DNA of 64,000 nucleotides from Candidatus Fervidifonticultor sextus (GTDB taxonomy: Bacteria; Sysuimicrobiota; Sysuimicrobiia; Sysuimicrobiales; Humicultoraceae): positions 64,001 through 128,000 of the forward strand of contig JAVKHQ010000001.1 of NCBI GenBank assembly GCA_031459875.1, read 5' to 3'. The notes under the pieces were generated by a model that was not told the DNA's origin, did no database searches, and saw only the letters and a list, made by a program, of their open reading frames with translations. A program made the translations under genes and the position numbers. Positions 32,126 to 42,308 of this stretch are shown here, piece by piece. Numbering within the stretch: the first letter of the stretch is position 1; each line of letters opens with the position of its first letter.

Positions 32126-33127
32126 CTAGCGCCGGCGGGACCGTCGCCGCCTGGCCCCGGTCGCCGGCGAGGCGAGCGCCGGGTCCCCGGCGGGCGCGAC
32201 GGTGGGGACCCGCTCCTCGAGCTGCGGGGCGCGGGTCCGCCCGGCCCGCCGCTGGGCCCACAGGTGCCAGTCCACGAGGAGCGCGCTGGCGTTGAAGACC
32301 GAGGAGTACGCGCCGACGGCGATCCCCACGATCAGTCCGAAGGCGAAGTCGCGGATCGTGGACCCGCCAAAGAAGTACACGGCAGCGAGGGCCAGCACCG
32401 TGGTGAGCACGGTATTGATGGACCGCACCAACGCCTCCAGGAGGCTGCGGTTGACCAGCCGGTCGAAGGCTTCCCGGGTCCGCAACGCCAGGTTCTCGCG
32501 GATGCGATCGAAGACCACGATGGTGTCGTTGATCGAATAGCCGACCACGGTGAGCAGCACGGCGACGAACGAACTGTTGACCTCCTTGCGGGTCAGCGCG
32601 AAGATGCCCACCACGATCAGCAGGTCGTGGAGCAGGGCGGCGTCCGCGGTCAGGGCATAGCGGACGGACTTGAACCGAAACGAGATGTACAGCACCTGAA
32701 GGGCCAGGCCCACCACGACCCCGAGGATGGCCACGTTGCGGAGTTCGCGGCCGATCTTGGGGCCCACCTCGTCCTCGCGGAGGACCGTGACCTGACCGAA
32801 TTGCTGCCGCAGCGCCGCCAGCAGCCCGGCCTTGGCCTGGGCGCCCAGCGGGCGGGTCCGGATGAACACCTCCTGCTCCGCCTTCTGGATGATGCTCTGC
32901 CCTGTCGCGAAGCGGTCCACCACCGCCCGCACCTGTCCGATGGTAAACGGCCGTTCAAGCCTCAGCTGGAAGTAGTTTCCGCCCGTGAAGTCCACGCCCC
33001 AGTTCAGCGCGCCCTGGCCGGAGGCGATGTTGGCGATCAGGGCGACCAGGCCGGGGATGATCAGAAGCAGCGAGAAGGCGTAGCCCCACCGGCGCTTGCC
33101 GATGATGTCCCACATGGCGGGGGTCAT
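32126..33127 (-). CDS. secF: Protein translocase subunit SecF
   Basis: GVDFTGG, VGP.IG.EL, LLHD, GYSINDTIVVFDRIREN, RSINT; ATGA overlap with secD. Confidence 0.96.
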   Translation of the reverse strand: MTPAMWDIIGKRRWGYAFSLLLIIPGLVALIANIASGQGALNWGVDFTGGNYFQLRLERPFTIGQVRAVVDRFATGQSIIQKAEQEVFIRTRPLGAQAKAGLLAALRQQFGQVTVLREDEVGPKIGRELRNVAILGVVVGLALQVLYISFRFKSVRYALTADAALLHDLLIVVGIFALTRKEVNSSFVAVLLTVVGYSINDTIVVFDRIRENLALRTREAFDRLVNRSLLEALVRSINTVLTTVLALAAVYFFGGSTIRDFAFGLIVGIAVGAYSSVFNASALLVDWHLWAQRRAGRTRAPQLEERVPTVAPAGDPALASPATGARRRRSRRR

Positions 33128-34509
33128 CGGGCTGGCCTCCCGGCGACCCGCGCCAGCAGCGGTCCCAGCCCGGCGGCGGCCGCCGCGTCCACGAAGGCCC
33201 GCGTGACCACAATGGCCGTGAACATGCTGACCAGCACCCCCAGGCTGAGGGTCACCGCAAAGCCCCGGACCGGCCCGGTGCCCAGCAGGAAGAGCACGAC
33301 AGCGGCGATCAGCGTGGTCGCGTTCGAGTCCAGGATCGTGGTCATCGCGCGGTTCCACCCCGCGCCGACGGCCGTGCGCAGCGCCTTGCCCGCGCGCAGT
33401 TCTTCCTTGACCTTCTCGAAGATGATGACGTTGGCGTCGACCGCCATGCCGATGGAGAGCACGATACCGGCCAGGCCCGGCAGGGTCAGCGTCGCCCGGA
33501 GGCCGACCAGCAGCGCGGCCAGGATGGCCAGGTAGAAAATCAGGGCCAGGTCCGCCAGCACCCCCGGCATCCCGTAGTACAGCACCATGAAGAGGACGAC
33601 AGCCGCAATCGCGACCCAGGACGCCCGCACGCTGGCGTCGATGGAGTCGCGCCCCAGTTGCGGGCCGACGGTCCGGTTCTCCACCACCTCAACCGGGACC
33701 GGCAGCGCGCCGCCACGCAGCAGAACGGCCAGGTCGCGCGCCTCCTCGATGGTCTCGAACCCGCCGGAGATCACGCCGGTCCCGCCCGGGATCCGCGTGC
33801 GGATCACCGGCGAGGTGATCACCTGGCCGTCGAGGGTAATGGTCAGGTACTTGCCGACGTTGGCGGCGGTGTAGTCTTCGAACTTCTTGGCGGCCTGGCT
33901 GCGGAACCTGAAGCTCACCACCGGCGCCCCCGGTTCCGCAGGGTCCTGGCTGTACTCGGCCTGGGCGTGTTCCAGATCGGCGCCGGTCAGGATGACCTTC
34001 TTCTCCAGCGCCAGCGTGCGCGGCTGGTCGGGCTGGCCCGGGGCGGGGGGAGTTGCCGCGGGGAGGATCACCGTCTTGCCGTCCTCGCTCCATCGCGCGC
34101 CCCTGGGCAGCGACTGCGTACCCGTGTCGATGAACTCCAGCAGGGCGGTCTTGCCGATCAATTCAACGGCGCGCTGGGGGTCCTGGATGCCGGGCAACTC
34201 GACCACGATGCGGGTCTGCCCCTGCCGCTGGATCGTCGGCTCCACCACCCCCAGCTGATCGATGCGCCGCTCGATGACGCGCATGGCGGCGTCCACGGCT
34301 TCGGGGGTCGCCTTGACCGTGGGGGAGTCACGGGCCTCCAGCACCAGGAGGCTGCCGCCCTGGAGGTCCAGCCCCAGGACCCAGCCCGCCTTGGGCGCCT
34401 GAAAGGTCGGGATGGGTCCCACGAGCGCGACCGGACGGAATGCGACCTGAACCGCCGCAAGGAAGGTGATGAAGATGCCGACCAACCGGACTCCGAGCCG
34501 TGAACCCAC
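33124..34509 (-). CDS. secD: Protein translocase subunit SecD
   Basis: LGLDLQGG, RID.LGV.EP, LRGGALP, LTLPGLAG..L.IGMAVDANV.IFE. Confidence 0.96.
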   Translation of the reverse strand: MGSRLGVRLVGIFITFLAAVQVAFRPVALVGPIPTFQAPKAGWVLGLDLQGGSLLVLEARDSPTVKATPEAVDAAMRVIERRIDQLGVVEPTIQRQGQTRIVVELPGIQDPQRAVELIGKTALLEFIDTGTQSLPRGARWSEDGKTVILPAATPPAPGQPDQPRTLALEKKVILTGADLEHAQAEYSQDPAEPGAPVVSFRFRSQAAKKFEDYTAANVGKYLTITLDGQVITSPVIRTRIPGGTGVISGGFETIEEARDLAVLLRGGALPVPVEVVENRTVGPQLGRDSIDASVRASWVAIAAVVLFMVLYYGMPGVLADLALIFYLAILAALLVGLRATLTLPGLAGIVLSIGMAVDANVIIFEKVKEELRAGKALRTAVGAGWNRAMTTILDSNATTLIAAVVLFLLGTGPVRGFAVTLSLGVLVSMFTAIVVTRAFVDAAAAAGLGPLLARVAGRPAR

Positions 34510-34568
34510 TCGTCTTCCCCTTCCCTGTAGCCGCTGCGGACGCAAAAAAAGAGGGCCGAGCCCGGTTC

Positions 34569-34598
34569 ATTATAGGCTGTGCCACTGACCCATGGCAA
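34569..34598 (-). promoter_or_regulatory. sigma70 promoter of secDF-lapA-recJ
   Basis: TTGCCA-18 nt-TATAAT. Confidence 0.65.
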
Positions 34599-34663
34599 GG
34601 CAGGGAGCCAGCGGCCGCGCGCGAACCCGTGTCCCTGTGAGTCTGTTCGAGAGGGACGCCAGC

Positions 34664-35590
34664 GTGGTGTCGGCGGTGCCGCTGCGCGTGGACGGGTGTG
34701 AGGTCCTGGTCGGCACCTGCTCGTGGGCCGACCGCGGGGTCATCGCCAGCGACTTCTATCCCCGCGGGGCCAAGACGGACCCGAAGGCGCGGCTCCAGTT
34801 CTACGCCGGTGTCTTCCCCACGGTCGAAGTGGACGCCAGCTTCCACGCCCTGCAGCCTGCAGACCGCGCCCGGCAGTGGCTGGAGTGGACGACGCCGACC
34901 TTCCGGTTCAGCGTGAAAGCCTTCGCCTGGCTGACCGGGCACGAGAGCGATCCCAGGCGCCTGCCGCCCCAGATCGCCGCGCTGCTGCCGGCCGCCCTGC
35001 GGGATGCCGGGCCGGTCCGCGCGGCCCGCGTGCCGGAGGAGGCCGTGGCGGCGGCCTGGGACCACTTCGCGGCCTTCGTGGAGGTCTTCGCGCGCGCCGG
35101 CCGGCTGGGCTACGTCCTCTTCCAGTTCCCCAAGGGTCAGGGATTCTCGCACGAGCTGTTCGCGTACCTGGATGCGTGGATGCCGTACCTGCGGGCCTGG
35201 CCGGTGGCCGTCGAGATCAGGCACAGGACGTGGCTGTCCCGCCGGCACCGGGAGACGTTCCTGGGCTACCTGCGCGCCCACGGCCTCGCCTACGTCGTGC
35301 CCGACATGGCCCAGGTGCAGTACCTGCCGCCACCCGAGGTGGCCGTCACGACCCGTTGGTCGGTCATCCGGTTCCACGGCCGCAACCCTGCGCTGGCCCA
35401 GCGGCGCGTCTCCACCGACGTGGCGTACGACTACCTGTACTCTCGGGATGAACTGCAGACATGGGCCAGGACGGCCCGCAGGCTCGCCCGCGAAGTGGAC
35501 GCGCTGTACCTGATGTTCAACAACCACGCGCGCGGCCAGGCGGCGCGCAACGCCCAGGAGATGGTGGGGCTGCTGGCGCAGCCGGACTGA
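34664..35590 (+). CDS. DUF72 (YecE-like) protein
   Basis: VGTCSW, FYP, F.TVEVDASF, FSVKA, LFQFP, VEIRH.TW, RFHGRN, YDYLYS..EL, FNN; GTG 34664 with GAGGGA. Confidence 0.92.
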   Translation: MVSAVPLRVDGCEVLVGTCSWADRGVIASDFYPRGAKTDPKARLQFYAGVFPTVEVDASFHALQPADRARQWLEWTTPTFRFSVKAFAWLTGHESDPRRLPPQIAALLPAALRDAGPVRAARVPEEAVAAAWDHFAAFVEVFARAGRLGYVLFQFPKGQGFSHELFAYLDAWMPYLRAWPVAVEIRHRTWLSRRHRETFLGYLRAHGLAYVVPDMAQVQYLPPPEVAVTTRWSVIRFHGRNPALAQRRVSTDVAYDYLYSRDELQTWARTARRLAREVDALYLMFNNHARGQAARNAQEMVGLLAQPD

Positions 35591-37805
35591 GCCTGGCCGC
35601 CACCTCCTCGGCCAGGCGCGGCGCAGGATACCCCAGCGGCCCCAGCAGTGTCTCGGTGGCCCGGATCAACAGGTCCGTGTAATACCCGACGTCGTAGGAC
35701 CAGTCGGGGCCCAGCAAGCCCAGGGGCCGGACGCGGTCCTCGGGCAGACGCGCCCCGGCATCGGTGATGAGGTACTGGATCCGCTCCCCGGGATGCAGGC
35801 GCACGCCGGCGCGGGCCATCTGGCGCGCCGCAACGGCTGCCGCGGCGTGGTGCCGGTAGGCCTCGGGCGTGCGCGAGATCGTCGTGGCCATCGCCAGATC
35901 CGTCGCCCTGACCTCGCCGCCTCTCAACCGGACCACGGCCCCGGTCAGGAGGTCGAGCACCCGGGGGATCGCCGCGCGCACCTCGGCCAGGGTGCTGGCT
36001 TCAAAGAGGACCTCCAGCATCCGGGCCTGGGTGTGGGCGACGAGCGGCGGCAGGTCGGCGCGCCGGACTTCGATGCCGCGGACCTTCGTCCTCCCGTCGT
36101 CGAAACGGCCCAGATACCGGTTGGGCACGCCCAGGCCGGGGTGCGTGCGCGACGGCAGGAAGGCGATCCAGTCGTAGACACCCTCGACGAAGATCGGGAG
36201 GCCGGTGGCGCGCTCGATGGCCCCGGCCAGGGCATCGTAGTCGGCCTTCGTGGCGCCGGGCCGGTGCAGCCACATGGAGTCCACCAGCGCGTGGAGCATC
36301 CGGTAGCCCTGCGCCTCAGCCAGGTCCTTGGCGCGCAAGAGCATCTCGCGGGAGAAGGCGGTGGTCGCCTCGTGGGCCTCGATGCGACCGAAGCGGGCAT
36401 TCCGATAGCCAAGGTATCCAAATGCACACACCAGGCACCACTTCAACGCCGTCTGCCGCTGCTGGTAGAGCGCCCGGATCTCCCCCGCCGTCTCCTGCTG
36501 CCGCCGCTTGTAGTACGCCCGCCGCTCCAGCAACGGCTCCAGCACCTCCGGCACCAGCCCCTTGCGCCGCTGGCAGAGCCGCGCGCCGGTCTCGGGCACG
36601 CGCGGCGCGTCGGGACAGCAGGCACAGTTGATGGTCTCGGGCGAGACGTTGAACCGCGCCATGATGGTGGGATACATCGAGGAGAAGTCGAGTTCGCCGA
36701 CGCCCTCGAAGACCCCCACGACCGGCTGGTAGACGAGCCCGCCCTTGTCGGTGATCAGCAGCGCTTCGGCCGACTTGAACGCCTCGGGTTCGCTCTTGTG
36801 GTGCGGGATCAGGATGCCGCGCCGGATCGCCCGGTGCAATTGCATGGCGCTGATGGCGGTGCCGATGGAGGTCCGAGCCAGGTACTGGACCGGCAACCGG
36901 CCCAGCCGCGCAATCTCCACGAGCCCCGTCAGTTCGGTTTCGGCGTAGATGAACGAGTTGCGCAGGTCCAGGTGCCAGCGGCCGTGCAGCATCTGGGCAC
37001 CGGCCGAATAGACCGTCTGGCCGTAGGTCAGATACGAGCGCGCGCGCCGGGTGCGAATGCCCTGATGCGATTCGCGGTTCCACTTTAGCGGTATCCCGAC
37101 CTGCCGGGCGAGCCGCCGCAGCCGCGGCACCAGGAAACTGTCGCCCCACTCGGTGAGGATGACGTCGGGGTCGTAGCGGGCGATCAGGCGGTTGAGGCTT
37201 GCGACCAGGTCTTCGGGGCGCTCGCTGCAGAGCACCACCGTCTCGCCGTCCACCGAGGCCTCGAGTTCCGTGCGCCGGGTGTGGGCGGGGTCGATCGGGT
37301 CGCCGTCCAGGCGCAGGCGGAGCGTGGTCAGCGGCGGGAGCGCGTACTCGACGTCCTCAGGGGCGTCCAGCGGCTGGAAGGCCTCCGGGGCGACGACGCG
37401 GCGTTCGTCCTCCACCCGGTAGCGCCCCAGCGGGAAGAGGCCCGTCTGCACGAAGAACACCTGGGGGACGCTGAGATCGCAGGTGAAGAGCGCGATGCGG
37501 GGCAGACGCGCCGCGGCCCGCACCGCCGCCGGGTGGGCGCACGGCCGGCGGATTGCGACCTGCAGCACCGGCACGTCCGCCCCCGAGAGCAGGTCGGTCC
37601 GGACCGCCATCGCGGTCGTTGCCTCGATGCCCGAGGCCGCCAGCAGTGCCGGCAGGCGCTCCAGCGCGGCTGGCGGTCCGGCGGCATAGAAGACCGGGGC
37701 AAACGCCACCGTCAGGCGGTACGGCCGACCGTCTGATCCGACCAGCCAGACCACCATCCCGTCTTCGGCGGGGTAGGCGTCGAACAGCCAGCCGGTAAGG
37801 GCCAT
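35517..37805 (-). CDS. Family B DNA polymerase, archaeal PolB2/Dpo2-like
   Basis: Motif A LDFSSMYP, motif B RQTALKWCLVCAFGY, variant motif C HALVDS, K.RGIE.RR; degenerate exonuclease motifs; NCACC insertion. Confidence 0.9.
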   Translation of the reverse strand: MALTGWLFDAYPAEDGMVVWLVGSDGRPYRLTVAFAPVFYAAGPPAALERLPALLAASGIEATTAMAVRTDLLSGADVPVLQVAIRRPCAHPAAVRAAARLPRIALFTCDLSVPQVFFVQTGLFPLGRYRVEDERRVVAPEAFQPLDAPEDVEYALPPLTTLRLRLDGDPIDPAHTRRTELEASVDGETVVLCSERPEDLVASLNRLIARYDPDVILTEWGDSFLVPRLRRLARQVGIPLKWNRESHQGIRTRRARSYLTYGQTVYSAGAQMLHGRWHLDLRNSFIYAETELTGLVEIARLGRLPVQYLARTSIGTAISAMQLHRAIRRGILIPHHKSEPEAFKSAEALLITDKGGLVYQPVVGVFEGVGELDFSSMYPTIMARFNVSPETINCACCPDAPRVPETGARLCQRRKGLVPEVLEPLLERRAYYKRRQQETAGEIRALYQQRQTALKWCLVCAFGYLGYRNARFGRIEAHEATTAFSREMLLRAKDLAEAQGYRMLHALVDSMWLHRPGATKADYDALAGAIERATGLPIFVEGVYDWIAFLPSRTHPGLGVPNRYLGRFDDGRTKVRGIEVRRADLPPLVAHTQARMLEVLFEASTLAEVRAAIPRVLDLLTGAVVRLRGGEVRATDLAMATTISRTPEAYRHHAAAAVAARQMARAGVRLHPGERIQYLITDAGARLPEDRVRPLGLLGPDWSYDVGYYTDLLIRATETLLGPLGYPAPRLAEEVAARLSPAAPAAPPSPGRCAPPGRARGC

Positions 37806-37806
37806 C

Positions 37807-38106
37807 TCATTCCGCCGTCCCGTCGGCGCGACCCGGCACACCGGGCGCGCGGCTGCCCTCGAGTACCTCCACCCGTGCACGCAGCGCGTCCACCTGTTTG
37901 GCCATCTCCAGCAGCATCGCGACCAGGATCACCTCGAACGGCACCGGCCGGGACAGGTAGGCCGCGGGGGCAGTGTGGTGCCGCGCGGCGGCAAAGAGCC
38001 GGTCGAAGATCGTCCGGTCTTCCTTGCGCAGCGCGCGGCGGAAGGGTGCGAAGTTCGCCTCTTCCTGGGCGACGATCTGTGTCATCGTGGGGACCGTGCG
38101 GCCCAT
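37807..38106 (-). CDS. Small helical PolB2-associated protein
   Basis: MGRTVPT...FRRALRKEDR.IFDRLF; TGATG overlap with the upstream gene and 1 nt gap before polB. Confidence 0.82.
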   Translation of the reverse strand: MGRTVPTMTQIVAQEEANFAPFRRALRKEDRTIFDRLFAAARHHTAPAAYLSRPVPFEVILVAMLLEMAKQVDALRARVEVLEGSRAPGVPGRADGTAE

Positions 38107-38753
38107 CAAGAGAACCGCCGCGCCGCCAGCAGCGCGATTGCCGGCTCCCACCGCCACCGACCGCCGGCGGGCTTCTCCCCGACGATCTCGATCCCGCCGT
38201 CGCGGGAGGCCACCGCGAACGCCCAGGCCGCCGCGGCGTGCAGTTGCGGCAGGAACCCCTTGCGCCCGGGCACCGGCGGCCGAACCGGGCTCGCCACCAC
38301 CAGGGGTAGCGGCCCGGAGGCCAGATGCGTGACGGTGTCCAGCACCCGCCGGAAGATCCGCCGGGCCTCGGCGGGGGAGACATCCTCGTCGTCGAGGAGA
38401 TCCAGCACTCCGGCCAGCAGAACCCCACCCGGCCGGCGCGCCGCAATGGCGCCAGCCAGGCGGTCTGAGACCGCGGCTTCGAGTTGGTAGGCGGTGAAGA
38501 CGCGGGACAGGTAGACGCTGGCCAGCAGGACCCCGGGCGCCTGCCCCAGACGCCGGGCCAGGTCCGAGAGGAGGTAGGGATTGAACGAGTTGGCTCCGTC
38601 CACCACCAGGAGGGGCCGGATCGGGGTCGCGGTCCGCAGGCCGACCAGGAGGCCCACCGTCAGACAGGCTTCATCCCCGCTGAGCAGGATCAGACCGACC
38701 CTCGGCTGGGGGAGCGATGGGAGAACCGCGTGGACAGACATCAGGCCATCCAA
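38106..38753 (-). CDS. Inactive RadA/RecA-like protein (start 38753 TTG or 38741 ATG)
   Basis: LLVVDGANSFNPY, SRVFTAYQL; no Walker A GKT. Confidence 0.78.
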   Translation of the reverse strand: MDGLMSVHAVLPSLPQPRVGLILLSGDEACLTVGLLVGLRTATPIRPLLVVDGANSFNPYLLSDLARRLGQAPGVLLASVYLSRVFTAYQLEAAVSDRLAGAIAARRPGGVLLAGVLDLLDDEDVSPAEARRIFRRVLDTVTHLASGPLPLVVASPVRPPVPGRKGFLPQLHAAAAWAFAVASRDGGIEIVGEKPAGGRWRWEPAIALLAARRFS

Positions 38754-38783
38754 AGCCCACCATGCTGGAGGGGCGCAACCCCC

Positions 38784-38811
38784 ATTATACGAACATGTGT
38801 TCGTATGTCAA
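38784..38811 (-). promoter_or_regulatory. Consensus sigma70 promoter of the iRadA-small-polB2 operon
   Basis: TTGACA (38811-38806), 16 nt, TATAAT (38789-38784). Confidence 0.85.
38790..38803. promoter_or_regulatory. LexA (SOS) operator, GAAC-N4-GTTC type
   Basis: CGAAC-ATGT-GTTCG; arms extend to ATACGAAC/GTTCGTAT; fills the promoter spacer. Confidence 0.9.
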
Positions 38812-38851
38812 TACCGAACGAGGGGGGCCTCTGGGAGGAAAGACAGCACCC

Positions 38852-39568
38852 TCACAGATCGGGGATCTGCCAGTCGATCTCCGGGAGCCCCAGGGCCCGC
38901 AGTGCGGCGTTGATCCTTGAGAACGGCCGGCTGCCGAAAAATCCCCGGCGGGCCGAGTTCGGCGACGGATGCGCAGCCTCCACGATGCGGTGCCGGGAGG
39001 CGTCGATGAGTTCCGCCTTCCGCCGGGCGTCCCGGCCCCACAGCGCAAACACCACCGGAGCCTGACGGGCGTCGACCGCTCGAATGATGGCATCGGTGAA
39101 ATGCTCCCACCCCCGGCCGCGGTGTGAGCCCGGCTGGTAGGCGCGCACGGTCAGGACGGTGTTGAGCATCAGGACTCCCTGGCGCGCCCACGGCACCAGG
39201 CAGCCGTTGTTGGAGATCCGGCAGCCCAGGTCGTCGGCGAGTTCCCTGAAGATGTTCACCAGCGACGCGGGCAGCGGGACGCCGGGCTTCACCGAGAAGC
39301 ACAGCCCGTGTGCGTAGCCGGGGGTCGGGTAGGGATCCTGTCCCAGGAGCACCACGCGCACGCGGCTGTAGGGGGTGAGCCGCAAGGCGGTGAAGACCTC
39401 CCGCTCGTCCGGGAGGATCGTGTAGCGGCGGCGCTCGGAGGCCAGGAACGCCTGGAGATCCCGGTAGTAGGGTTCGACGACCTCGCGGGCCAGCACCCGC
39501 CGCCAGCCGGGCGGAATGCGCCGAAGCCACGCCGCCGCAGGCGGCGTGGTGGGAGACCGTCCGTTCAC
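38852..39568 (-). CDS. ung: Uracil-DNA glycosylase (family 1)
   Basis: VLLGQDPY, AHGLCFSV, LPASL.NI, WARQGVL.LN..LTV, HPSP; GTGA overlap. Confidence 0.95.
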   Translation of the reverse strand: MNGRSPTTPPAAAWLRRIPPGWRRVLAREVVEPYYRDLQAFLASERRRYTILPDEREVFTALRLTPYSRVRVVLLGQDPYPTPGYAHGLCFSVKPGVPLPASLVNIFRELADDLGCRISNNGCLVPWARQGVLMLNTVLTVRAYQPGSHRGRGWEHFTDAIIRAVDARQAPVVFALWGRDARRKAELIDASRHRIVEAAHPSPNSARRGFFGSRPFSRINAALRALGLPEIDWQIPDL

Positions 39569-40380
39569 GGCCCGTCCGCGAACGACACGGCGAAGCGCAG
39601 GTACCACTCCCGCAGTGCCGGCGTGCGGTAGTGGAACTCGCTGATCACCGACAGCCCCACCCGGGCGCCGCCCAGAACGCCGGCCAGCACCCGCGGCGGG
39701 TCCGGCACCCCGGCGAGCGTGGGGGCCACGGTGAGGAACAGTTCGTCCAGCGCCCGCGATGCGGCGAGCCGTCGGTTCGTCTGTGGGCCGCCCTCGGCCA
39801 GCACCCGCTGCATGCCGCGCGCCTGCAGCAGGCCCAGCGCGGCCGCCAGGTCCACCTCGCCCTCGGGCGTCGCCGGCACCACGAGGACCTCGGCGCCGGC
39901 GGCTTCCAGGCGCCGGCGGTCGACGTCGCGCGCAAGCTCGGTGGTCAGGACGATGGACGCGAAGTCGCGCCGGTCGAAGAAGCGCCGCGCCAGGACCTCG
40001 TCGGGGAACTCGGCCCGCCGCGTGACGACCACCGCGGCGGGGTGCCCGGGACGGCCGGATGCGATCCGCTCGGCCTGCAACTCCGGATGTGTCGTGGGCA
40101 CGAGATCATGGCGCCATAGCGTGCCGGCGCCGCACAGTACGGCGTCAGCCCAGCCCCGGAGGGTTCGGAACAGGAAGTGATCGACCTCAGACCCAATCGT
40201 CCATGCCTTCCCCTCGACGGCGACGGCGCCGTCGAGGGTCTGCACCATGTTGAGGATCACCGCCGGCCGACCGGGCGCCGCCCTGACCTGGAGATCCCGG
40301 TACACGTCCTCCAGCAGCACCTCCGCAGGGTACGGCTCGCGGGTGTGGTAGGCCAGCGTGAGCGTGCGCGGGAGGGCCAC
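39565..40380 (-). CDS. RibD C-terminal/DHFR-like reductase
   Basis: NMVQTLDGA, LR..ADAVL.GAGT, AEGGP.TN, DELFLTVAP. Confidence 0.85.
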   Translation of the reverse strand: MALPRTLTLAYHTREPYPAEVLLEDVYRDLQVRAAPGRPAVILNMVQTLDGAVAVEGKAWTIGSEVDHFLFRTLRGWADAVLCGAGTLWRHDLVPTTHPELQAERIASGRPGHPAAVVVTRRAEFPDEVLARRFFDRRDFASIVLTTELARDVDRRRLEAAGAEVLVVPATPEGEVDLAAALGLLQARGMQRVLAEGGPQTNRRLAASRALDELFLTVAPTLAGVPDPPRVLAGVLGGARVGLSVISEFHYRTPALREWYLRFAVSFADGP

Positions 40381-40389
40381 CGGCGGGCG

Positions 40390-41790
40390 CTAGAACTCGA
40401 TGATGGCCCCGTCGCGCACCAGCCGACGCTGGACTTCCCGCACCAGGTCGCGGCGCTCCGCCAGGACATGGGGCGTGACCCGGGAAAGCACCACGACCGC
40501 GGCGGCGGTTCCCGCCGCCTGGCCCATGGCAATCGTAGTCGGGACGACACGGGCCGATCCGGCGGCCTGGTAGGTCGCCGAGAACGCGCGGCTGGACACG
40601 AAGAGGCCGTCGATGTGGGCGGTGATCAGCGACCGCAGGGGGATGGTGTAGGGGTACCGCACCGGGCGGTAGGGATAGCGCTCGCCTTGTTTGTAGGCGT
40701 GGAGGTCCACCGGATACGAGGCCACGGCCACGCGGTCCCAGAAGAGGGTCCGCTCGACGATGTCCCGCGCCGTCAGGACGTAGAGACCCCGGATGTGCCG
40801 CGTCTCGCGGATGTAGAGTTCCGGCGCCACCTCCACCAACCGGGCGCGCGCGAATCCAGGGCAGTGCTTCCGCATGTACTCCACCAGCCTGGGGATCTCA
40901 CGCCTGGCGCGTTCGTACCCTTCGATGCGGGAGGCGCGGCTGGTCCCATCCACGTCGTGCACCTGGAGCGCATTGACCAGCACCGTACCGTCGGGCAGGC
41001 GGCCGATGTTGAGGTCCTGGGCCGACAGGCGCGGGTCGTCCGGCCGGTACTCCCGCATGGCCTGCCGGTATCCCCAGGCATAGCCGTCGAAGACCCCGCT
41101 GGGCTGGCGGCCCCGACGGTGCGCGTAGGCATAGCGGACGATCTCAGGCCAGTCCACGTCGGCCAGGCGGAACATGAGCGTGGCGGGCATGGCCCGGCGG
41201 TCGAGCCCCGAGGTTTCCCGACCGTAGGTGTACGGCACGCCGGCGGCCGCGGCCAGATCAGCGTCGTCGGTGGCGTCGATGGTCACGGTTGCGGTAATCC
41301 TGGCCTCAGCGCCGTCAGGCAGCCGGACCACGGCGCCGCGCACCCGGCCGGACGCCACTACCGGCCGCACCAATTCCGTGCGGGTCAGCAGCGTGATCCC
41401 CGGCTCGGCTTCGACCTTGTCCCGAAGAATCGCGCGCATCCGCCGGGGATCGAAGGTGATCCCGCCGATCTGCCGGTAGAGCTCCAGGAAGATCCCGCGG
41501 ATGAGGTGTTCCTGGCGGCCCGGGACCCGGCTGAGGTCCACCACGTTCAGCATGGCGCCGGTCCAGACCGTGCCCAGGAACGGCCGGGGTTCGGTCAGCA
41601 CGACGACCGTCCCCTGGCGGGCCGCCGCCAGGGCCGCAGCCACACCCGCCGGACTCCCGCCGACCACCAGCACATCGGCCTTGAACCCGGGCGGCCGGAC
41701 ATCCGACCGCAGCAGGCGGGGCCGCATCGCCACGATGGCGGCCACCACCACCAGCCCCAGCAGGGCAGCCGCGAGTGTCCGCGGGCGCAT
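40390..41790 (-). CDS. FAD-dependent oxidoreductase with N-terminal membrane anchor
   Basis: DVLVVGG.PAGVAAALAAAR, IDATDDADLA, ELYIRETR, YTIPLRSL, GQAAG. Confidence 0.85.
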   Translation of the reverse strand: MRPRTLAAALLGLVVVAAIVAMRPRLLRSDVRPPGFKADVLVVGGSPAGVAAALAAARQGTVVVLTEPRPFLGTVWTGAMLNVVDLSRVPGRQEHLIRGIFLELYRQIGGITFDPRRMRAILRDKVEAEPGITLLTRTELVRPVVASGRVRGAVVRLPDGAEARITATVTIDATDDADLAAAAGVPYTYGRETSGLDRRAMPATLMFRLADVDWPEIVRYAYAHRRGRQPSGVFDGYAWGYRQAMREYRPDDPRLSAQDLNIGRLPDGTVLVNALQVHDVDGTSRASRIEGYERARREIPRLVEYMRKHCPGFARARLVEVAPELYIRETRHIRGLYVLTARDIVERTLFWDRVAVASYPVDLHAYKQGERYPYRPVRYPYTIPLRSLITAHIDGLFVSSRAFSATYQAAGSARVVPTTIAMGQAAGTAAAVVVLSRVTPHVLAERRDLVREVQRRLVRDGAIIEF

Positions 41791-41801
41791 GCGGCAGCGA
41801 G

Positions 41802-42308
41802 TCACGGGCCGCTCGCAGGCTGGGGGCCCAGCGCCGCCAGCGCCGCGGCCAGGTGCCCGTAGGTGTCTTCCAGGCTTTGCGGGAGGACCTTGACGTCGCC
41901 GAGGACCGGCATATAGTTCGTGTCCCCGGTCCATCGGGGGACCACGTGGATGTGCAGGTGGTCATCGATCCCCGCGCCGGCGGCCCGGCCCAGGTTCATC
42001 CCCACGTTGAAACCGTCGGGCGCCATGGCCTGCTCCAGGACGCGCACCGCCACCCCGACCAGCCGCATCAGGGCCCCTCCCTCCTCCGGGGACAACGCCT
42101 CCGGCCGGGCCACGTGTCGGAACGGGACGGCCATCAGGTGCCCGCTGTTGTAGGGATAGCGGTTGAGGATCAGGTAACCCAGCGCGTCGCGGTAGAGGAT
42201 CAGGGCAGCGCGGTCGTCGCCCTGGGCAGGCGCCTGACAGAAGATGCAGCCGGGCTCCTTCGGACCCGTGACGTAGCCCACCCGCCAGGGCGCCCAGAGC
42301 CGCCTCAC
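41802..42308 (-). CDS. HIT family hydrolase
   Basis: [26 protein letters not shown]. Confidence 0.93.

Follow-up and report, generated by a model that had tools for sequence, protein, structure and literature searches.

Can a DNA polymerase module of archaeal descent be part of a bacterial SOS response? The question is raised by a three-gene operon of Candidatus Fervidifonticultor sextus, found within positions 64,001 to 128,000 of contig JAVKHQ010000001.1 (assembly GCA_031459875.1), a stretch of 64,000 nucleotides (nt) that we call the window and whose own numbering is used throughout. On the minus strand, the operon encodes an inactivated RadA-like protein (iRadA), a small helical protein (PPB2) and a family-B polymerase (PolB2), behind a promoter whose spacer holds a palindrome of the LexA-operator class. 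In our reading, which we consider quite probable, it is a bacterial PolB2 mutasome of archaeal derivation, repressed by LexA and inducible by damage, that serves translesion or mismatch extension.

The operon type itself is already published. Passages of a 2014 study by Makarova, Krupovic and Koonin describe PolB2 in one operon with arCOG07300 and an inactivated RadA, in archaea and several bacteria, in some of which lexA lies in the same operon and a damage response was inferred (PMC4104785). A 2025 study by Timinskas, Timinskas and Venclovas, in the passages covered, named iRadA and PPB2, inferred a single archaea-to-bacteria transfer, gave iRadA-PPB2-PolB2 as the only bacterial gene order, reported lexA, SRAP and DUF72 as enriched near polB2, and derived a heteropentamer of PolB2, iRadA and three PPB2 chains from AlphaFold models (PMC11791011); the group appears as G2/PolB2 in a 2026 paper, likewise covered in passages (PMC12926913). 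The original prediction for this locus, made from the sequence, was that the module has been wired into the bacterial SOS regulon. The box evidence given below supports this, whereas the idea is not new, as iRadA-PPB2-PolB2 operons with a lexA link are in print (PMC4104785, PMC11791011). The prediction also stated that no experimental characterization in bacteria was known, and literature searches found none either. A LexA operator at PolB2 promoters is not named in the passages of PMC4104785, PMC11791011 and PMC12926913 that were covered, supplements not being among them; the terms 'operator', 'promoter', 'DnaE2', 'ImuA' and 'co-occur' have no occurrences in the main text of PMC11791011, nor has 'mutually exclusive' in PMC12926913. 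Our additions are therefore modest: the operator in two promoter layouts, and a complementarity between PolB2 and DnaE2. Neither this exclusivity nor the operator shared by the two systems was found in print, supplementary files not being covered.

The promoter was found exactly as predicted. Its –35 hexamer TTGACA (38806..38811) and –10 hexamer TATAAT (38784..38789), both on the minus strand, are separated by 16 nt and agree with the consensus at 12 of 12 positions, which is notable in a genome of 70% G+C; promoter-like sites between 34400 and 39700 number two, against 0.3 expected from dinucleotide shuffles. The palindrome CGAACATGTGTTCG (38790–38803), a perfect CGAAC-N4-GTTCG assigned to LexA by motif class and conservation, occupies 14 of the 16 spacer bases. 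Just 5' of the –35 hexamer, on the same strand, stands a GTTCGG half-site (38814..38819) that relatives keep in promoters of this layout and that recurs in imuA promoters. It is possibly the remnant of a second box, with a putative function, and in the relative L011 it belongs to a one-mismatch box, GGAACCCCTGTTCG. The three genes that follow, all on the minus strand, are coupled as had been claimed: iRadA (38106..38741, 211 residues) overlaps PPB2 (37807..38106, 99 residues) through TGATG, and PPB2 is joined to PolB2 (35517..37805, 762 residues) through TGA-G-ATG.

The same type of box marks the genome's own SOS genes, in line with the prediction that this motif is the host's LexA box. In the genome LexA is encoded twice, by paralogous genes, and RecA once; allowing up to one mismatch to CGAAC-N4-GTTCG, boxes are located 25 nt upstream of lexA1 (G000 C1:7136-7780), 14 and 50 nt upstream of lexA2 (G000 C6:13986-14633) and 44 nt upstream of recA. 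Perfect matches number 10 in the 3.05-Mb genome, the operon's box included.

Conservation of the box was followed in two sets of orthologous loci. The first comprised 34 related loci from species-representative genomes, 22 of which have an iRadA match and all three genes. A perfect box lies 0–59 nt upstream of iRadA in 12 of the 22, that is, in all 12 close-clade loci (PolB identity 55–96%), and the 89,244 nt of these loci contain no other perfect box. The second set consisted of 30 upstream stretches from genomes of the window's phylum, 27 of them countable, as the iRadA start falls off the contig in three; 25 of the 27 have a perfect box and two a one-mismatch box, CAAACATATGTTCG. Eight contigs occur in both sets, which leaves 31 distinct orthologous loci, with 29 perfect and two one-mismatch boxes at iRadA identities of 37–91%. 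Two promoter layouts recur: in the window's own, the box sits in the –35/–10 spacer, and in the other an imperfect CGAACAGTGGTAC overlaps the spacer and a perfect box follows about 24–26 nt downstream. In other phyla, lexA is placed directly upstream of iRadA in six of 10 loci, the arrangement given for Leptospirillum by Makarova et al. in a passage of PMC4104785, and downstream in two of 10. As a prediction from sequence, LexA control of the operon is thus well supported, owing to the same box type at lexA1, lexA2 and recA and to its conservation across 31 distinct orthologous operons, and LexA would be expected to bind the operator.

The assignment of the polymerase to the PolB2 type, also part of the original prediction, is borne out by both motifs and phylogeny. 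The 762-residue protein is a family-B polymerase (Pfam DNA_pol_B, E 3.7e-33) whose top NCBIfam models are NF004416 (E 1e-124) and NF004418 (4e-112), with Pol II models reaching only 1e-18. Against PDB sequences, phmmer places archaeal PolBs best (2e-47), compared with 1.4e-9 for E. coli Pol II. Identity to archaeal PolB2-like genes is 32–39%; four archaeal homologues show the same NCBIfam ranking as the window protein, and two of the four have an upstream PPB2 gene detectable with the window's PPB2. A maximum-likelihood tree was inferred for 32 rows, namely the window sequence, four archaeal PolB2-like genes, six other PolB paralogues of those archaeal genomes, 20 bacterial homologues and E. 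coli Pol II; it came from a quick LG+G4 search, contains several long branches and has no Sulfolobus Dpo2 or labelled PolB1 row. In it, the window sequence falls in a bacterial clade (98 in the Shimodaira–Hasegawa-like approximate likelihood ratio test, SH-aLRT) nested in a larger one (support 100), to which the four archaeal PolB2-like genes also belong and which stands apart from the six archaeal paralogues and from E. coli Pol II; branching among the close-clade PolB2 sequences is broadly congruent with taxonomy. Measured against the features of an E. coli-type Pol II (DEDD exonuclease, YGDTDS, place in the Pol II clade), the window polymerase does not qualify as one.

Its active sites have diverged unevenly. 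In the alignment the exonuclease motifs are lost, with the Asp and Glu of Exo I replaced, FD changed to FL in Exo II and the Exo III segment missing. Motif A is preserved as DFSSMYP, and motif C reads HALVDS in place of the canonical YGDTDS. Across 22 aligned PolB2 sequences, the motif A Asp, the second Asp of motif C, Lys455 of motif B and the KxRG motif are invariant, which argues for selection on catalysis. A family-conserved loop carries FKSA at residues 343–346 and DK at 353–354, with D353 and the GG at 355–356 invariant; it fits the Rad51-like oligomerization motif and D(K/R) motif described in a passage of PMC11791011.

Two further features of PolB2 sequences were noted. In seven relatives (G019, G030, G053, G059, G080, G081 and G082), the PolB2 match splits at residues 461–463 (about 36417–36425 in the window), inside motif B (...CAF/GY...), into pieces 500–1900 nt apart within one open frame of 975–1303 residues. 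This suggests an intein in these seven, which the window copy does not have. The last 25 or so residues of the window protein are of low complexity; only L011, the closest relative, shares them, and they appear to stem from read-through into the DUF72 gene.

The two accessory proteins match their expected descriptions as a RadA-fold protein without Walker A and a small helical protein. For the 211-residue iRadA, profile scans gave no Pfam and no NCBIfam match; its predicted structure (predicted local distance difference test score, pLDDT, 88.6) matches the ATPase cores of RAD51, RadA and Dmc1 in Foldseek (E about 1e-10, template modelling score 0.65–0.70). It does not have the N-terminal domain of these proteins, and SGDEACLT stands at the place of the Walker A GxxxxGK[ST]. 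The iRadA tail is conserved, ending in ARRWW in relatives and ARRFS here, with pLDDT below 50 for residues 203–211. Prediction of a PolB2–iRadA complex scored 0.64, against 0.51 for a control with an unrelated chain 1. PPB2, of the arCOG07300 type, has an all-helical predicted fold and an N-terminal MGRT arm whose G2, R3 and T4 do not vary among 25 aligned homologues (two from archaea), which confirms the overlapping start codon; according to a passage of PMC11791011, this arm is the key contact of PPB2. A Foldseek search of PPB2 against the PDB returned nothing at E 0.001 or better, and in a wide VIA-align search the best Z was 5.5, with a chain of sigma factor RpoE at rank 23 (Z 4.6, 75 residues aligned). 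The published likeness of PPB2 to a sigma-factor N-terminal domain was thus not clearly reproduced by Foldseek or VIA-align.

Taken together, these features suggest how the operon might work. In the undamaged cell, a LexA dimer on CGAAC-N4-GTTCG between the –35 and –10 hexamers would block RNA polymerase. After DNA damage, RecA-stimulated self-cleavage of LexA would free a very strong promoter, and the three translationally coupled genes would be produced together. PolB2, without proofreading and with its motif A Asp and second motif C Asp, would act as a translesion or mismatch-extending polymerase, to which iRadA would bind via the Rad51-type FxxA loop and PPB2 via its MGRT arm. Induction, complex formation, polymerase activity and mutagenesis are presumed here by analogy with work on Sulfolobus Dpo2 and with published models.

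Which SOS polymerase, then, would the module stand in for? The original prediction regarded it as a functional analogue of imuA-imuB-dnaE2 or umuDC, and indeed neither imuABC nor umuD was found in the host's own 96%-complete genome, whose single DnaE-type gene scores below the DnaE2 cut-off; in it no S24 protein of UmuD type passes the cut-off, and a contig end cuts the one Pol IV-like gene. We surveyed 94 genomes of the phylum, 54 of them of high quality, calling PolB2 at E 1e-30 or better and DnaE2 above the cut-off of NF004225, the model of the error-prone polymerase DnaE2. PolB2 is present in 47 of the 94 (26 of the 54 high-quality genomes) and DnaE2 above cut-off in 32, with both in none and neither in 15. 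Six of these 15 are less than 87% complete, a seventh, G088 (72% complete), holds DnaE2-like fragments, and so do the more complete G025 and G026. Two unpublished genomes, G020 with PolB2 and G028 with DnaE2, are included; without them the counts are 46 with PolB2, 31 with DnaE2 and none with both, of 92. In three genomes of one genus (G085, G086 and G087, 94–99% complete), neither polymerase is found above cut-off, and these may have no SOS mutasome or a different one.

The distribution of the two polymerases changes repeatedly along the phylogeny. A DnaE1 tree covered 80 of the 94 genomes, the two unpublished ones and 12 without a usable full-length DnaE1 row being left out (G021, G025, G038, G039, G049, G055, G060, G068, G069, G074, G078 and G088). 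On this tree the PolB2/DnaE2 state requires at least six changes, and the sister species G009 (DnaE2) and G011 (PolB2), both in the window's genus, differ in state (SH-aLRT 99). A conservative independent-pairs test is not significant (nine pairs, median p 0.0625); DnaE2 is opposite to PolB2 in 4.4 of the nine pairs on average and runs in the same direction in none.

The DnaE2 loci of relatives have a familiar composition and a familiar promoter. In three scanned against NCBIfam, DnaE2 scores 1358–1368 bits and is preceded by a protein of about 496 residues with weak Pol IV similarity and by a RecA/ImuA-like protein of about 200–215 residues. Upstream of the ImuA-like gene, four of five such loci carry a perfect box flanked by TTGAC and a TATAAT-like hexamer, a design that is the window's own, and the fifth has a one-mismatch box. 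The PolB2 and DnaE2 cassettes have no common flanking genes within about 4 kb, and no similarity is detectable between iRadA and the relatives' ImuA-like protein (BLASTP E 0.26). In other phyla, DnaE2 is above cut-off in none of 10 PolB2-bearing genomes, which are of unknown completeness and have no matched control.

Strict exclusivity of PolB2 and any second DnaE was rejected on account of G017, G045 and G049. In the PolB2-positive G017, a gene truncated by a contig end has the DnaE2 model as its best match (679 bits, model positions 6–659), with no imuA or imuB directly in front of it, a perfect box at a distance of 26 nt upstream and, 1.2 kb upstream, an IS110 transposase; this is probably a true co-occurrence of PolB2 and DnaE2, or else a binning artefact. 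In G045, also PolB2-positive, locus L174:2813-7706 holds co-oriented genes for a Pol IV-like protein (425 residues), a DnaE-like protein (995 residues) whose best match is a Pol III alpha model, and UdgX (211 residues), with no LexA box. Second DnaE-like matches akin to that of G045 were found in G049 (PolB2-positive, gene truncated) and G047 (no PolB2). The complementarity therefore concerns the ImuA-ImuB-DnaE2 type, for which it is strong but not absolute within the phylum, related genomes not being independent observations. In this phylum the PolB2 cassette seems to occupy the place that imuA-imuB-dnaE2 holds otherwise. Whether the two are interchangeable SOS mutagenesis modules, having replaced one another at least six times in one phylum, almost never occurring together and both using the TTGAC-2 nt-CGAAC-N4-GTTCG-TATAAT design, is a proposal on which we stand evenly divided. 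If true, it would amount to evidence from comparative genomics that PolB2 takes the part of DnaE2 in bacteria and that a cell tolerates one such mutasome only.

A separate observation on the DnaE2 genes is that in eight relatives (G012, G027, G029, G061, G063, G070, G073 and G074) the DnaE2 match breaks at model position 738–739, in open frames of 1309–1661 residues, which suggests an intein-like insertion.

Several observations weigh against a LexA-controlled PolB2 mutasome. The perfect motif occurs once in the window, where shuffles expect 0.09 and at least one match arises in eight of 100; taken alone, the match is only mildly unusual, and the weight is therefore carried by the position and conservation of the box. 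PolB2 stays below the curated cut-offs of all NCBIfam polymerase models, NF004416 and NF004418 included. A canonical QLxLF motif for binding the beta clamp, frequent though not universal at the C-terminus of iRadA or PolB2 in operons of this kind and carried by E. coli Pol II as QLGLF, is not visible at either C-terminus here, as judged by eye, no profile search having been made. In other phyla the CGAAC-N4-GTTCG box is absent upstream of iRadA in 10 of 10 loci, and a palindrome scan upstream of lexA in six lexA-iRadA-PPB2-PolB2 loci gave no consistent motif. Either of the two LexA paralogues could be the binder, and they may prefer different half-sites: a GTAC half-site (GAAC-N4-GTAC) is present in the boxes of lexA2 and of a dnaB gene described below, as well as in the first box of two-box polB2 promoters (the relatives listed for it being L013, L015, L017–L019, L026, L033 and L034). 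Finally, the first Asp of the DxD motif is missing from PolB2, a loss that was once taken as inactivation, with a regulatory role proposed, in a passage of PMC4104785. Added to the loss of all three Exo motifs and to a partner of RadA fold, this would suit a complex that is no polymerase in vivo, with a dead or near-dead PolB2 that, once induced by damage, would join the other two proteins in a regulatory or mediating role in recombination or at stalled forks. We regard that as unlikely, given the four invariant catalytic features across 22 PolB2 sequences and passages reporting that Sulfolobus Dpo2, with the same motif C substitution, is an active translesion synthesis extender (PMC8764526, PMC7390963; cited in PMC11791011).

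The operator, for its part, is known here from its letters, and the shuffle count and the two LexA paralogues with possibly different half-site preferences would also accord with a palindrome bound by a non-SOS regulator, or with a constitutive operon in which it is incidental, either way outside the damage response. This is very improbable in view of the same motif in front of both lexA genes and recA, the box kept in 31 of 31 distinct orthologous promoters (at most one mismatch) despite diverged flanks, lexA physically fused into the operon in other phyla, and the imuA-imuB-dnaE2 cassettes of relatives, a classic SOS target with the same box at the same promoter position. The patchy distribution, with PolB2 in 47 of the 94 genomes surveyed in the phylum and differing even between sister species, might alternatively reflect recent mobility of a mobile-element cargo and no host SOS function, and an archaeal origin by horizontal transfer is published (in a passage of PMC11791011). 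Here the operon lies among housekeeping genes (secD, ung, DUF72 and one for a RibD-type reductase), no integrase or transposase open reading frame was seen within 33000–42000, the close-clade PolB2 tree broadly follows taxonomy and the operator matches the host's own regulon, so that we see next to no likelihood in such an origin for the pattern.

A LexA-repressed mutasome thus remains our preferred reading, and its surroundings can be described briefly. The convergent DUF72 gene (34592..35590, plus strand; PF01904, 8.4e-52) is a conserved neighbour outside the operon; its 3' end overlaps that of polB2 by 74 nt (35517–35590), and a convergent DUF72 was found at eight related loci. On the other side, ung, a family-1 uracil-DNA glycosylase gene (38852–39607, minus strand; NF003592, 294 bits), ends 40 nt before the –35 hexamer of the polB2 promoter, a same-strand placement otherwise found only in L011. 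The second promoter-like site of the region, TTGCCA-18-TATAAT (34569–34598, minus strand; 11 of 12 positions), falls between secD and the DUF72 gene, which diverge from each other across a gap of 46 nt. DNA of the window was matched in four DNA sequencing runs of one hot-spring metagenome study, of which one may be its source, with no RNA run listed.

Elsewhere in the genome, the box points to two more genes. A DEAD/MZB helicase of the MrfA type (G000 C34:121012-123314), with a perfect CGAACCTGTGTTCG 25 nt upstream, is likely a further member of the LexA regulon. A dnaB gene containing an intein (Pfam Intein_splicing; G000 C56:41694-44090), with CGTACATTTGTTCG 11 nt upstream and a perfect box overlapping its start, is an unusual candidate SOS target.

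Bacterial PolB2 mutasomes have so far been known from computation alone. This locus and its orthologues define a precise operator and promoter for LexA, and the near-perfect complementarity with imuA-imuB-dnaE2 leads to a falsifiable prediction, namely that PolB2 substitutes for DnaE2 in SOS mutagenesis. As the host organisms are uncultured, tests would have to be heterologous.

Among known systems, the closest is the bacterial PolB2 mutasome as described in passages of PMC4104785 and PMC11791011, with which the window operon shares gene order and coupling, the PolB2 motif pattern, the MGRT arm, an iRadA without N-terminal domain or Walker A, an FxxA-like loop followed by DK, the DUF72 neighbour and the SOS link. 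It differs in that lexA is no neighbour here, the SOS link being a cis operator in the promoter. Sulfolobus/Saccharolobus Dpo2 belongs to the same polymerase group, has likewise lost its exonuclease and the first Asp of DxD, and is co-encoded with iRadA and PPB2. Dpo2 is damage-inducible, as we propose for the window operon, although archaeal induction proceeds via Orc1/Cdc6- or TFB3-type factors and not LexA (a passage of PMC11791011).

More distant parallels lie among the SOS polymerases of bacteria. E. coli Pol II is also a family-B polymerase under LexA control, but it is a single subunit with an active exonuclease and YGDTDS, on a separate branch of our tree. Pol V (UmuD'2C-RecA) is similarly an SOS mutasome of several subunits, in which a partner comes from the RecA family and a small subunit inserts an N-terminal arm; the parallel is drawn in a passage of PMC11791011. 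Yet Pol V is built on a Y-family polymerase with real RecA and UmuD. ImuA-ImuB-DnaE2 has the same overall plan, three genes under LexA control whose products include an error-prone polymerase and a RecA-fold subunit that is dead as an ATPase, and in relatives the same TTGAC-box-TATAAT promoter. Its parts, however, are not homologous to those of the window operon: its polymerase is of the C family rather than the B family, and ImuB, a Y-family relic, has no counterpart. The window operon is thus an analogue, not a member, of the ImuA-ImuB-DnaE2 cassette.

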